Below, piece by piece: positions 54,401 to 60,400 of a stretch of DNA of 64,000 nucleotides. Each line of letters starts with the position of its first letter. Within the stretch, counting starts at the first letter, position 1. The DNA lies in the NCBI RefSeq assembly GCF_013167455.1, contig NZ_CP038328.1; one strand, 5' to 3'. Position numbers: made by a program. Source of the DNA: Escherichia coli O157:H7. Its GTDB lineage: Bacteria; Pseudomonadota; Gammaproteobacteria; Enterobacterales; Enterobacteriaceae.

Positions 54401-57400
54401 TCTGGCTGGTCCATTGATGGCGATGGTTACCACCATGTTGGGGGCAATATGACAGGTTTAAAAATGGCGAAAGTCGGTCTGCGGGAACAGAACCGACTTT
54501 CAGGTGCAAATCGTAACACACTCATTGCGGGAGGAATTATGGCAAACACTGCTGAGATATTCAATTTTCCTGTGCCGGATGCGGCACAAAAGGAGCCGCG
54601 CGTGGCAGATCTCGATGATGGTTATACGCGCATTGCAAATGAGTTGCTGGAAGCTGTAATGCTGGCCGGATTAACACAGCACCAGCTTCTGGTCTTCCTG
54701 GCTGTCATGCGCAAAACATATGGCTTTAATAAAAAACTGGATTGGGTGAGCAACGAGCAACTTTCCGAGTTGACCGGGATATTGCCGCACAAGTGTTCTG
54801 CTGCAAAAAGTGTTCTGGTAAAGCGTGGGATTTTTATTCAGAGCGGGCGGAATATAGGCATTAATAATGTGGTCAGTGAATGGTCAACATTACCCGAATC
54901 AGGTAAGAAAAATAAAGTTTACCTGAAAGAGGTAAATTTACCTGAATCAGGTAAGAAAAGTTTACCCAAATCAGGTAAAGGCACTTACCCGAATCAGGTA
55001 AACACAAAAGACAAACTAACAAAAGACAATATAAAACCTTATTCGTCCGAGAATTCTGGCGAATCCTCTGACCTGCCAGAAAACGACCTTCCTGTGGTGA
55101 AAGCGGATGCTGCGATTCAGAACGGCAGCAAGTGGGGGACAGCAGAAGACCTGACCGCCGCAGAGTGGATGTTTGACATGGTGAAGACCATCGCGCCATC
55201 AGCCAGAAAACCGAATTTTGCAGGGTGGGCTAACGATATCCGTCTGATGCGTGAACGTGATGGACGTAACCACCGCGACATGTGTGTACTGTTCCGCTGG
55301 GCCTGCCAGGACAACTTCTGGTCCGGTAACGTGCTGAGTCCGGCCAAACTCCGCGACAAGTGGACCCAGCTCGAAATCAACCGAAACAAGCAACAGGCTG
55401 GCGTGACAGCCGGCAAACCAAAACTCGACCTGACGAACACTGACTGGATTTACGGGGTGGATTTATGAAAAACATCGCCGCACAGATGGTTAACTTTGAC
55501 CGTGAGCAGATGCGTCGGATCGCCAACAACATGCCGGAACAGTACGACGAAAAGCCGCAGGTACAGCAGGTAGCGCAGATAATCAACGGTGTATTCAGCC
55601 AGTTACTGGCAACTTTCCCGGCGAGCCTGGCTAATCGTGACCAGAACGAACTGAACGAAATCCGCCGCCAGTGGGTTCTGGCTTTCCGGGAAAACGGGAT
55701 CACCACGATGGAACAGGTGAGCGCCGGAATGCGTGTTGCCCGTCGGCAGAATAGACCATTTCTGCCATCACCCGGGCAGTTTGTTGCATGGTGCCGGGAA
55801 GAAGCATCCGTTAACGCCGGGCTGCCAAACGTCAGCGAGCTGGTTGATATGGTTTACGAGTATTGCCGGAAGCGTGGCCTGTATCCGGATGCAGAGTCTT
55901 ATCCGTGGAAATCGAACGCGCATTACTGGTTGGTTACCAACCTGTACCAGAACATGCGGGCCAATGCGCTGACTGACGCGGAATTACGGCGCAAGGCTGC
56001 CGATGAACTGACCTGTATGACAGCGCGAATTAACCGTGGTGAGACGATACCTGAACCAGTAAAACAACTTCCTGTTATGGGCGGTAGACCTCTAAATCGT
56101 GCACAGGCTCTGGCGAAGATCGCAGAAATCAAAGCTAAGTTTGGGCTGAAAGGAGCAAGTGTATGACGGGCAAAGAAAGATTCTTCGTTACTTGAAGAAA
56201 TACAGTGTTTATTGTTCTTTTGAGATGTTGCGAAAACAGGAATTACCACGGTAAACATTTTGTAGCTGACCCATGCATTGATGAAATATTGTGGGTATTT
56301 AATAGAGCATAATTATCAAGTTGCGTAAGATGTGGAGTAATGGTATGGGCGGTGTTAGCACCGCCTTTAATTAAAGCTCAGAAAGCTGTGATAATATTTT
56401 TTCTGGAGTGGTTTCGTTGGAAATGCTAAATAATACAGCACCTTTGACTGATTCATCTCTCATTTCAATTTCACATGAATTATGGTTGTATGAGATTGCA
56501 TAATTTTTTAATGTTCTTTCGCTTTGCCACCACACCATATTTGCAAGACTTCCGTTATACGTTCTTATCTCGATTGATCCGGGCAGGGCTTTCCAGATAA
56601 CACCTCCTAGCAATGTAAGAGCGGCTGCACCAACATTTTTTGCATGATGGTTAGAACGTTCCATTACCCCTTCAGCATAACGATGAAGAATCTCTATGTC
56701 AGTCGCTTTGATAGTCATGTTATTTCCATGTAATTGCTGTGTGAAACGTAGTGTTAGTTAGGTGTTAGCAGAATATAGCATCAAAGTCGAAACCGGTAGA
56801 AAAAATATTGGTGATTATTTCGCTGCATTTGGAACTGGAACAACAATGATTATTAGCATGATTGCTTTTTCCAGTCATAAGAATGAGTCGTGTTAATTTT
56901 TTCTATTCAATAGGAAATTATCATGTCATCAGAATATGAACAACTACGGTGACTTCTGCGCTAAACGGGGACGTTTATGCGCACATACAATCCAAACTCT
57001 CTTCTCCCTCCACAGATGCAGAAATACACCTGCGATTTTTTGCATTCGGTGTTTTTGGCAGCCAAGAACAGGGAGTCTCTGTTTGTCTGGCGGCTAAAGG
57101 TGATATGGAAATCGTGATGTCTTAGCCTAAAGTAGTTGCAACAGTTGGAGCGATTATGGTGGTAGTAGTGATCATCGCGCCCCCCATATGCAAGGGTTGA
57201 CGACATTATTTATCCGGCGCTATATTCTGTGCGTTGCCGCAAAATCGGCACACGGGATTGGCGTCCCGGACATCAAAACGACGCATAACCGCGTTCGCGG
57301 TTTTTTTATGCGCAGTGCACGTCTACACAAAAATTATGGTGGGCTGTGTGAGGGCTTCTTCGGAAGCGCCGGATTTCGTTTTGACCGGTTACGCCAACCT

Positions 57401-60400
57401 TGCACAGTCCACCACCAGTCGATTGGCGTCGTCGGTGGTGATAGCTCAAATTCAAAACGAGATTATCGCTATGGTCACTCAGCTCGCATTCCGCGATGTA
57501 AAATTCACTCCTATAAATCACAACAACCAGATCTGGTTTACCAGCAAAGAATTGGCGGCAGCATTAAAATATGCCAGCACCAAAGCAGTAACCGACATCT
57601 ACAACAAAAATATTGATGAGTTTACTGACGGAATGTCTCAGGTCGTCGAATCAACGACCTCAGGAAATTATCGTAAGAAGACTCGCATTTTCTCCCTCCG
57701 TGGCGCCCATCTGATCGCCATGTTCGCCCGCACTCCTGTGGCCAAAGAATTCCGCCGCTGGGTGCTGGATATTCTTGATCGAGAAATTCAACAATCCCCA
57801 ATCACAAAACAATTCACTGATAACGAACTTTGCACACTTGCTTGGTTATGGCGGGCAAGTGACACAATGTTAACCGCTTGCCAAAACGTCACTCCGCTTC
57901 TTCAGGTAGCAGAACACCGCGAAGCCGGTCGCTTCACTTCAATCGAACAAGAATATCCCCGGATACTCAATAAGGCACAGGCAATCCTTGCCAGAGAAAC
58001 GGCACATGTAAAATTCCGGCCGTGGCAGGATGATAAGTGGAGTCGAGTATTGACGCATTTACGTTCTGAACGGCTGTAATAAAGTTGCGGGAGAGAAATG
58101 CCGCTAGTATTTTGTAATTAATTGAATGCTGACGGTTTAATGAGAAGTCAAGAACACTACTTGTACTATAATCGTTCGATGTTAGTGAGGGTTTGATGCA
58201 AAAAATGAAGTGATTGACCCTAAATTTGCGCGATCAGCGACAGATTGTACACCGAGATCCTGTGGGCTGGAATTTGCAGAGAAATACCGAAAATGATATC
58301 CAATATTGTTTTCAGTTCCTACATCATACCTGATAAGGGTATAATCATAAAAATTAGGATAATTCAAGTTATAATTGTATGAATAAAAACGACCTTGAAG
58401 CATTATCTGACACTAGGCTTAATGAGGCCAAATGCTTGCTTGATCATGGCTTTTTTCATGGTGCATATTATCTTTGTGGGTATGCAGTTGAATGTGCATT
58501 GAAGGCCTGTATTGCCAAGTCATTTTTACAACATGAGTTTCCAAACAAAAAAGTCGTAAATGATTCATATACTCATGATTTGTCGCAACTTCTCAAAATT
58601 GCCAACTTACATCAAATTTTGATTGCTGACGCAAAAAATGATGTTTCGTTGGAGATTAACTGGTCGGTCGTTAAAGACTGGAGCGAGCAATTTAGATACG
58701 ACAATAACATAAGTAAAGCTATGGCCGAACAATTGTTTGATGCTGTAGGTGACCAAAATTCTGGAGTTTTGAAATGGGTAAAAGCACACTGGTAATCGGC
58801 AGAGAGTTGACAAAAGATATGGAATTCTCAGGTCAATTTTTGTTAAAAAAACTCAAGTTACAGAATTTAACTATTGATGCTGCAATGTGGTTTTATTACC
58901 CAGATCTATCTTGGAGATATATTTTAGTTATCAGTGACTTCTCAGAACGTGGGCCGGCAGAAATATATAGAAAAATCAGTGAGATAAATAGAAATAGCAT
59001 ATCAAAAAAGTATAAGCCGATACCATTAGAAGCAATTGAGGCTAAGGGGGATTCAGCTTTTGTTTATAAAATGTTAAAAGGATTTGCTAGAGTCAACGAT
59101 GGTAAAGTTCGCGTTTCTAATTCTATGGTAAATGGTTTAGAAATCGTTGACTGTCTGATCTATGAGTTAAAATAAGAAATCTCTTACTGGGTATCATTAT
59201 TGTTTAAATGACTTTTGATTTTCAATAATCAACTTGTCATAATTAAGTCACCGGAGTTTGAACTCCTCCGGTGACTTCTGCGCTAAACGGGGACGTTTAT
59301 GCGCACATACAATCTAAACTATCTTCTCCCGTCACAGATGCAGAAATGCACCTGCGATTTTCTTTATCCAGCGTTTGACCTCTGCGGAGGTGAAGCGTGA
59401 ACCTCCCACAAGACGGCATCAAACTGCATCGCGGTAACTTCACCGCTATCGGTCAGCAGCTCCAGCCTTATTTGGAAGACGGCAAGTGCTTTCGCATGGT
59501 GCTTAAACCGTGGCGCGAGAGACGCAGTCTTTCCCAGAATGCACTTAGCCACATGTGGTACAGCGAAATCAGTGAATACCTTATCCGCAGGGGGAAATCG
59601 TTCGCTACCGCAGCATGGGTAAAAGATGCTCTCAAACACACATACCTCGGTTATGAAACCAAGGACCTGGTTGATGTCGTAACCGGCGAAATCACTACTA
59701 TCCAGTCGTTACGCCATACCTCCGATCTTGATACCGGAGAGATGTATGTCTTCCTGTGTAAGGTTGAAGCCTGGGCGATGAATATTGGCTGCCACCTGAC
59801 TATTCCGCAGAGCTGCGAGTTCCAGCTGCTGCGCGACAAGCAGGAGGCGTAATGGCTACACCGCTTATTCGTGTCATGAACGGACACATCTACAGAGTAC
59901 CAAATCGTCGTAAGCGTAAGCCTGAGCTAAAACCATCCGAAATACCAACACTGCTCGGATATACCGCCAGCCTGGTTGATAAAAAATGGTTGCGACTGGC
60001 AGCAAGGAGGAATCATGGCTGATTTGAGAAAAGCAGCGCGTGGTCGCGAATGCCAGGTAAGAATCCCTGGCGTATGCAATGGCAACCCTGAAACGTCTGT
60101 ACTGGCACATATCCGGCTGGCTGGACTGTGTGGCACCGGTATTAAACCGCCAGACCTTATTGCCACCATTGCCTGTTCTGCCTGTCACGACGAAATCGAC
60201 CGCCGCACGCATTTTGTCGATGCTGAGTACGCAAAAGAATGCGCGCTGGAAGGTATGGCGAGAACGCAGGTTATCTGGCTGAAAGAGGGGGTAATCAAGG
60301 CGTGAATACCTACAGCATCACATTACCCTGGCCTCCGAGCAATAATCGCTATTACCGCCATAATCGCGGGCGCACGCACGTCAGCGCAGAGGGGCAGGCA

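Follow-up and report, generated by a model that had tools for sequence, protein, structure and literature searches.

By relaxed homologous recombination, lambdoid phages take up DNA of prophages, and the minimal pairing segments have been given as 31-34 bp for RecA and 23-27 bp for Red-beta (PMC3945230); the nin region is among the regions used by the authors of the work on relaxed recombination (PMC3945230, PMC2327257). In the prophage Gifsy-1, the antirepressor AnrP raises transcription of the antQ operon, and the antQ start site was mapped 1,600 nucleotides (nt) upstream of antQ (PMC4825925). Here, we analysed a stretch of 64,000 nt from Escherichia coli O157:H7 (NCBI RefSeq assembly GCF_013167455.1, contig NZ_CP038328.1), hereafter the window, in which a lambdoid prophage carries two near-identical direct repeats on either side of a Bro-N antirepressor-like gene. 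Our analysis suggests with high probability that the repeats mark joints at which modules were exchanged by homologous recombination and are, at the same time, a reused expression leader, i.e. a duplicated leader of the nin operon which serves as homology patch for gain and loss of a cassette composed of isrK-like and C4 RNAs and the antirepressor gene. The process is ordinary, well-known lambdoid mosaicism, here with unusually clean natural before-and-after alleles.

A repeat search of the window yielded a direct repeat of 162 nt (56893-57054 versus 59215-59376) with 81% identity and a spacing of 2322 bp, and no inverted ends around the bracketed segment. Pairwise alignment delimited a high-identity core of 93 nt (56947-57039 versus 59269-59361, same orientation) with exactly five mismatches, located at window positions 56993, 56999, 57009, 57010 and 57026. 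A preliminary description of the locus, made from the sequence alone, had reported direct repeats of about 92 bp with about five mismatches in the same orientation; this was accurate, and the similarity turned out to be longer than first read. Upstream of the core, around 55 nt more can be aligned at approximately 60% identity, and downstream another 15 nt or so (to about 57054), after which the two copies diverge completely. An exact block of 46 nt is common to both copies (56947-56992 = 59269-59314). It occurs only twice in the window, compared to 0.00 occurrences expected over 100 shuffles, even with three mismatches allowed.

The right copy (copy 2) matches the phage 82 sequence X92588 in GenBank at positions 101-235 (94.1% identity over 97% of the query). 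The annotation of this stretch comprises putative -35 and -10 elements, an inverted repeat labelled 'possible regulator-binding site', a ribosome-binding site, orf33, a second ribosome-binding site and orf151. The core of the left copy (copy 1) is approximately 90% identical to positions 74-211 of a related locus, L001. In DLP12 of E. coli K-12, the same 102-bp unnamed coding sequence is located directly 5' of ybcN; we take it to be ylcH. Presence of a single unit is the rule: in our phage collection, it was found once in 46 of the 48 unit-bearing records and every time ahead of a gene in NinB position. Among complete E. coli genomes, 3,018 of 5,426 carry the unit, mostly at one place of about 287 bp, and cassette-type sequence was detected in 307 of the 5,426, with the exact version of the window in 175. 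It had been proposed to check whether the unit occurs singly at the P/nin boundary of phages lacking the cassette, and this is what we found, with the single copy standing ahead of a NinB-like gene; the opposite case, two copies irrespective of what lies between them, is not what these records show. Judged from these matches, the nin operon of lambdoid phages of the phage-82/DLP12/phi80 type begins with the unit as its conserved head, and copy 2 is the normal, complete unit before ybcN. No Rfam family matched the unit at E values up to 1. In the literature searched, we found no study on the function of the unit, no paper dealing jointly with ylcH and ybcN and no recorded function for orf33. 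The structured leader itself appears to be undescribed and is the more interesting by-product of this analysis.

The gene order of the prophage is as follows: replication genes O and P (54449-56166), a minus-strand gene of 115 aa, copy 1, the cassette, copy 2, ybcN, ninE, ybcO, rusA, ylcG and Q. We compared the surroundings of both copies in double-copy loci, namely those of the window, of PhiR26_1 and IdasGreatGrand, of five viral contigs and of several E. coli genomes. In all of them, the left copy has the same distinct 3' continuation and is followed by isrK, C4 and the antirepressor gene, and none of the single-copy loci examined contains the left-copy continuation, isrK, C4 or the antirepressor gene. 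The continuation encodes the end of a leader open reading frame (ORF) variant of 46-53 codons, which overlaps the Shine-Dalgarno sequence and the ATG of a small hydrophobic ORF (phrog_4612). By these alignments, copy 1 is a paralogue of the leader that is tied to the cassette and has its own downstream gene. In related cassettes, the phrog_4612 ORF is intact and encodes 29-31 aa (MEIVMFWPEVVVTVVAAMAVIIMVSIYWG; MEIVMSWPKVVATVGAIMVVVVIIAPPICKG). The version with an internal TAG found in the window is 100% identical in many genomes of enterohaemorrhagic E. coli (EHEC), and the stop hence looks fixed in the lineage rather than caused by a sequencing error. A search of the small ORFs against NCBIfam gave no match. 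The cassettes share the region corresponding to window positions 56947-58114 at 78-88% identity. Positions 58115-59203 are lineage-specific, with unrelated ORFs or an insertion sequence (IS) element at this place in other cassettes, and similarity among cassettes resumes at about 59204-59214, at the -35 element of the right unit.

Direct repeats which flank a discrete accessory block that is present or absent among related prophages could also be a target-site duplication or the terminal repeats of a transposable or autonomous element carrying the antirepressor and HEPN genes, and the ends of a small mobile cassette had been among the readings offered in the preliminary description. A repeat of 93-162 nt is, however, far longer than known target duplications, and the copies have diverged, with five substitutions between those of the window and up to 24% difference between those of other genomes. 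Inverted ends are lacking, and no transposase, integrase or other recombinase domain was found in any searched cassette ORF between the copies. Moreover, the left copy is followed by a conserved continuation and a downstream ORF of its own, as a conserved paralogue rather than a target-site duplication would be, and the cargo between the antirepressor gene and the right copy varies independently. We consider an origin by transposition extremely unlikely on these grounds and rejected it.

Evidence for the repeats as joints of homologous recombination comes from natural alleles without the cassette. The left flank of the window is present in 180 E. coli genomes. A synthetic deletion product, consisting of the left flank, a hybrid unit and ybcN, was matched against E. 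coli genomes and, for the window's flank, gave end-to-end matches in two of them, NJS001 and STEC799. The single unit of both genomes follows copy 1 and its flank up to ...ATGCGCACATACAATC and then shows all five copy-2 variants as well as the downstream sequence of copy 2. In its sequence, this unit is exactly the product expected of a crossover within the 46-nt identical block. The preliminary description had seen the repeats as possible joints of a module insertion or swap and had predicted a loss of about 2.3 kb by recombination between the copies; the hybrid empty alleles support both ideas. A second left flank, with a DUF4041/PD-lambda-1 gene (L007), was found empty in 46 genomes, here with the marker switch inside a 29-nt identical block, and a third one with a NACHT gene (L008) was empty in two genomes; the unit alignment of empty alleles covered two of these three contexts, that of the window and that of L007. 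In another locus (L010), a cassette of a third lineage follows the left flank of the window, and the two meet just 3' of H1, the first hairpin of the unit. The lengths of the identical blocks (46 and 29 nt) reach or exceed the minimal pairing segments given above, with the 46-nt block exceeding the values for both RecA and Red-beta.

These alleles also bear on the view that both copies are kept mainly as regulatory elements for their own genes, while presence or absence of the cassette results from ordinary exchange at other sites, in which the repeats have no particular role. Both copies indeed keep the second hairpin (H2) and the start of the leader ORF, the start of the small hydrophobic ORF lies within the left leader ORF, just as that of ybcN lies within orf33, and the promoter-like site and the hairpins are conserved throughout the family. 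Yet, in both aligned contexts the empty alleles switch from left-copy to right-copy markers inside the unit, which identifies the unit itself as the exchange point. In addition, the ORF downstream of copy 1 is broken by a stop in the window and the promoter-like site and H1 of this copy are degenerate, pointing towards weak selection on the function of copy 1 here. With respect to function, such a purely regulatory role is compatible with the explanation we favour, but not with respect to the origin of the polymorphism, and as a full account of the repeats we regard it as improbable.

We further analysed the structure of the unit and its conservation. Folding of the copy 2 RNA (59244-59410) predicts four hairpins, H1 to H4, with a minimum free energy of -61.7 kcal/mol (z = -5.7). 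As relatives, we used 120 viral contigs collected by a pattern inside H3, plus phage and genome loci. Upstream of H1, the -35 element TTGATT was found in 91 of 120 sequences, the 17-nt spacer in 104 of 117 and the -10 element CATAAT in 81 of 120, and the sequence further upstream is unrelated. An alignment of 83 units with MAFFT misplaced the covarying stems, so that folding of single sequences and alignment to a covariance model were used instead. Among the distinct sequences folded singly, H2 has at least six different stem sequences, with the 9-12-bp stem, the GGGA loop and the position of the start codon constant in all of them; the stems of H1 likewise come in many forms. A covariance model of H1 and H2 produced an alignment of 97 matches, in which 92.8% of the cells are paired, two-sided changes are present at 20 of 23 pairs and the covariation score is 0.45, compared to at most 0.042 in a control with partners slid; since the alignment is fitted to the structure of the model, the pairing is somewhat inflated. 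The invariance of H3 in the viral-contig set is given by construction of the collecting pattern, and the sole independent evidence for this hairpin stems from Klebsiella phages identified by BLAST, in which CAG/UGCA...UGCA/CUG is replaced by CCG/UGGC...GCCA/CGG, with the pairing kept and the peptide altered. A terminator scan flagged H3 of both copies by consensus, a call read from sequence alone, and in many relatives the U run is interrupted. Across relatives, orf33 comprises 32-33 codons and has an overlapping stop and start with three different downstream genes; its length variants mostly differ from each other by multiples of three.

From this anatomy, we infer that a promoter and a structured leader make up the unit. 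Its leader ORF would be coupled to the first nin gene, and its terminator-like hairpin takes the position of tR2; the unit may thus work as promoter, attenuator and translational-coupling device. A duplicated regulatory site had been suggested before, either as promoter of the nin region or as an element of the N-utilisation (nut) type. The former agrees with the promoter-like site and structured leader described here. The latter would place a nut-like antitermination site on both sides of the cassette, in line with its place on the early rightward transcript, ahead of the region of the nin terminators, and with the loop of H1 (CCUGAACAA), which is superficially similar to boxB loops. However, no boxA-like match (CGCTCTTWA, at most one mismatch) is present within 56893-57060 or 59213-59400, the loop of H1 has 9 nt instead of the 5 nt of boxB, the unit lacks an Rfam match and H1 is directly preceded by the conserved -35 and -10 elements, which makes it more likely the 5' end of a transcript. 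Given the missing boxA in both copies and the size of the loop, we rejected the nut-like site, to which we assign hardly any probability.

The spacer of the promoter-like site contains a conserved palindrome, TTGATT-N6-AATCAA (59215-59232), which by its sequence resembles a protein-binding site. As a potential operator common to the immunity region, it was considered and rejected: the sole other site with at most one mismatch in the window is located at 53654-53671 on the start codon of a cro-like gene, which is not significant (0.31 sites expected; two matches are reached in 5 of 100 shuffles).

A more far-reaching interpretation is that the orf33 unit is an undescribed cis-regulatory device of RNA and leader peptide, which would gate expression of the nin-Q operon in prophages of the phage-82/DLP12/phi80 type and probably also, as a diverged version, in Gifsy-1 with its antQ start site mapped at the equivalent position. 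Its parts would be a promoter of its own, a hairpin at the 5' end, a second hairpin that presents the Shine-Dalgarno sequence, and a leader ORF that is translated across the terminator hairpin and coupled to the first nin gene. Being so conserved, it would double as a preferred docking point for antirepressor, defence and other cassettes. We put this forward tentatively and regard it as possible, though rather doubtful.

Returning to the exchange of modules by homologous recombination, the following sequence of events would account for our observations. Copy 1, a paralogous version of the leader, would drive another downstream frame in all cassette-bearing relatives, that of a small hydrophobic peptide, which is broken by a stop in the window. 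The constraint on RNA structure would keep tens of nucleotides of the unit near-invariant among otherwise unrelated phage segments, and by this near-invariance the unit could act as homology patch. Through homologous recombination within the unit, by the phage (Red-type) or the host (RecA), the cassette may then become linked to one left flank or another. Where a genome has both copies, recombination between them would delete the cassette, and the reverse reaction would insert it.

Beside the limits on the structural evidence for H1 to H3 named above, several points speak against this interpretation. Firstly, the empty alleles differ from the window by about 3% in ybcN and are thus relatives of the window prophage, not its direct descendants; the state they show may be the ancestral one and not the outcome of a deletion. 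Secondly, the window's flank is occupied in 175 genomes versus empty in two, i.e. the cassette is stable at the population level, and deletion is hence infrequent or selected against. Thirdly, copy 1 retains an intact H2 next to its degenerate promoter-like site and H1, indicating that not every part of the unit is needed in every copy.

One could further ask whether the unit, and specifically the region of H2, is a dedicated site for site- or structure-specific recombination, at which cassettes dock in a manner similar to integron attachment sites, instead of a passive patch of homology. All mapped junctions are located between H1 and the fifth codon of the leader ORF, in or beside H2, a cassette of a non-C4 type is bracketed by two units in the viral contig L093, and diverse defence-like genes (DUF4041/PD-lambda-1, NACHT and a 'Vch_cass14 family' gene) abut the unit. 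In each pair, however, the junction interval is also the longest perfectly identical block (46 and 29 nt), where homologous recombination is expected anyway. On its right side, the cargo ends at the -35 region and not at another hairpin, no integrase or recombinase gene is present in or beside the cassette, and H2 carries expression signals, a Shine-Dalgarno sequence in the loop and an AUG in the stem, which are conserved through stem changes. Regarding attC sites of integrons in particular, there is no integrase gene among the listed ORFs or the RefSeq annotations around the unit, and inspection of H2 by eye revealed no GTTRRRY or RYYYAAC cores. A dedicated docking site therefore appears very improbable to us, and we maintain the passive role of the unit as homology patch.

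Regarding the content of the cassette, the promoter-like element and the Bro-N gene named in the preliminary description were confirmed. Of the HEPN pair mentioned there, only the first gene encodes a HEPN domain, and two RNAs of Rfam level had been missing from the list. The region of the isrK-like RNA reached 64.1 bits with RF01394 (gathering threshold 50) and 40.6 bits with RF03163, which is below the gathering threshold of 46.7. The frame of the antirepressor gene is open upstream across the whole C4 region (57234-58079), with an in-frame ATG at about 57336, an arrangement that recalls the upstream ORF orf45, which controls translation of anrP in Gifsy-1. The partner of the HEPN gene (58774-59175) gave no match in Pfam, NCBIfam or PADLOC and is thus neither an MNT nor a second HEPN protein by these searches; together, the two genes could form a pair of the toxin-antitoxin or defence type, in which the partner would be an undescribed one. 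The positions of all features are compiled in Table 1.

Table 1 Features of the prophage region around the two repeat copies (window positions)
Feature	Position	Strand	Remarks
Left-flank gene	56371..56718	-	115 aa, phrog_5959; RefSeq 'Vch_cass14 family protein'
Degenerate promoter-like site and H1 upstream of copy 1	56893..56953	+	TTAATT-17-AAATTAT; H1 remnant 56925-56953, about -5 kcal/mol
Repeat copy 1, 93-nt core	56947..57039	+	Intact H2 (56957-56983), weakened H3
Left leader ORF	56977..57117	+	46 codons; first ~24 homologous to orf33; end overlaps Shine-Dalgarno sequence and ATG of next small ORF
Small hydrophobic ORF, phrog_4612	57105..57200	+	TAG at codon 7 (57123-57125); TGA overlaps -35 of next promoter
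Sigma-70-like promoter of isrK/C4-antirepressor operon	57197..57226	+	TTGACG-18-TATATT; 10/12 consensus positions
isrK-like RNA / c4-a1b1 target region	57235..57307	+	Ends in predicted intrinsic terminator, 57287-57302 and T run
C4 antisense RNA homologue	57332..57419	+	RF01695, 82.5 bits (gathering threshold 45)
Antirepressor-like gene	57471..58079	+	202 aa; Bro-N (1.7e-13) and P22_AR_C (1.7e-16)
HEPN-domain gene	58379..58795	+	138 aa; PF05168, E = 1.7e-5; weak PADLOC match to candidate system PDC-M28A, 1.8e-7
Partner gene	58774..59175	+	133 aa; overlaps HEPN gene by 22 nt; phrog_5760 (family of unknown function) only
Promoter-like site of unit	59215..59243	+	TTGATT-17-CATAAT; -10 CATAAT 59238-59243; conserved
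Hairpin H1	59245..59277	+	12-bp stem, 9-nt loop CCUGAACAA; 'possible regulator-binding site' of phage 82
Repeat copy 2, 93-nt core	59269..59361	+	
Hairpin H2	59279..59305	+	GCGCUAAACG-GGGA-CGUUUAUGCGC; Shine-Dalgarno sequence of orf33 in loop, AUG in 3' arm; IR4 in phi80 annotation
orf33	59299..59400	+	33 codons; stop UGA overlaps GUG start of ybcN (GUGA)
Hairpin H3 and U-rich run	59331..59367	+	Stem-loop 59331-59358, GAAA loop, inside orf33; terminator-like, at position of lambda tR2
Hairpin H4	59371..59398	+	Pairs Shine-Dalgarno sequence and GUG start of ybcN
ybcN / orf151	59397..59852	+	Gene in NinB position, NCBIfam PRK09741; first gene of nin-Q operon

The neighbourhood of the unit is variable beyond the cassette studied here. 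In the metagenomic viral contig L093, two units (395-529 and 1630-1764) bracket an unrelated cassette with an ORF of 178 aa and no C4 RNA, and bracketing by the unit is thus not unique to the antirepressor cassette. The slot between P and the unit contains DUF4041, which corresponds to PD-lambda-1, in L002 and L007, a NACHT gene in L008 and the 'Vch_cass14 family' gene in the window (56371-56718), i.e. genes resembling defence genes or integron cassettes that differ between prophages. As judged from gene content, the P-to-nin interval looks like a hotspot for accessory and defence genes with the unit as its right boundary. In E. coli F637 (L009, 2000-2323), only the C-terminal part of the antirepressor is left, adjoining ybcK; this is a decayed cassette devoid of the left repeat copy and the RNAs. 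An inverted repeat of 29 nt with 83% complementarity connects the leader region of the cassette (57150-57178) with the rusA region (60339-60367) over a distance of 3.2 kb, probably by chance. On the 3' side of Q (61763-62378), the prophage carries three tRNA genes, STnc100 (160.7 bits), the anti-GcvB small RNA AgvB (96.5 bits) and a sub-threshold match to AsxR, which is the layout of prophages of the Shiga toxin (Stx) type in EHEC.

The locus provides a documented example of lambdoid prophages trading accessory modules, with occupied and recombined empty states for three neighbouring genes, in which a short leader constrained by its structure supplies the homology for the exchange. The cassette places an antirepressor gene, by analogy under RNA control of the isrK/C4 type, immediately ahead of the operon whose last gene is the late-gene antiterminator Q. 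The prophage is of the Stx type found in EHEC strains O157, O26 and O111, and its induction behaviour could therefore change when the cassette is gained or lost. The leader itself, an RNA element with strong covariation, occurs in over half of the complete E. coli genomes and is a concrete candidate for the control of nin-Q expression.

Compared to described systems, the orf33-orf151 region of phage 82 and DLP12 is the closest to the unit: putative -35 and -10 elements, the inverted repeat of H1 and an ORF of 33 codons with a stop codon that overlaps the start of the following gene are all shared. Both have a single copy, whereas in the window another, partial copy lies 2.3 kb upstream and is followed by a different set of genes. 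The 33-codon ORF of the orf33 type with its overlap to ybcN is found in copy 2, but not in copy 1, which has the 46-codon variant ending over a different small ORF. In lambda, the terminator tR2 between ren and ninB occupies the same position, with H3 and its U-rich run located about 40 nt before the gene in NinB position, just as the lambda hairpin AACAGGCCTGC...GCAGGCCTTTTTATTT. Unlike tR2, the unit also has a promoter-like site and two more hairpins, and its terminator-like hairpin is spanned by a leader ORF; lambda shows no sequence similarity and no match to the H1+H2 model, and has only the tR2-type hairpin at this position. An example of a translational-coupling device based on a leader ORF is mok-hok. 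The unit is similar in that a short upstream ORF ends in the start region of the downstream gene and that a hairpin (H4) hides the ribosome-binding site of this gene. The left copy shows the same arrangement before the hydrophobic peptide of 29-31 aa; the resemblance to mok-hok is an architectural one only.

For the cassette, the closest relatives are isrK-orf45-anrP of Gifsy-1 (PMC4825925) and c4-icd-ant of the P1 immI region. In common with these systems, the cassette core has isrK/a1b1 and C4 RNAs followed by a gene for a Bro-N/P22AR-C antirepressor-like protein behind a promoter of its own. By sequence comparison, the cassette core is a homologue of both, and the order of isrK, C4 and antirepressor is the same as in Gifsy-1. 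The Gifsy-1 locus differs in lying downstream of antQ, whereas that of the window is located upstream of the nin-Q operon between two leader copies, with a small hydrophobic ORF ahead and HEPN cargo after it, unlike in Gifsy-1. The head of the Gifsy-1 nin-antQ operon (L139, NC_010392, minus strand, 36668-36582), read by eye, contains TTGACT-18-CATAAT, a hairpin with the same loop as H1 and a hairpin with a Shine-Dalgarno sequence in the loop and an AUG in its 3' arm. The likeness rests on this reading, as the covariance model of H1 and H2 gave 7.4 bits on Gifsy-1, which is not significant. The mapped antQ start coincides with the hairpin in the operon head of Gifsy-1, and in the window the distance from the -10 element to Q is 1.63 kb.

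With regard to the process, the locus is in line with lambdoid mosaicism (PMC3945230, PMC2327257), in which exchange likewise takes place in short near-identical stretches flanked by unrelated DNA. It differs in that the patch is duplicated within one genome, which supports intramolecular deletion besides exchange between phages, and in that a structured leader can be named as reason for its conservation.

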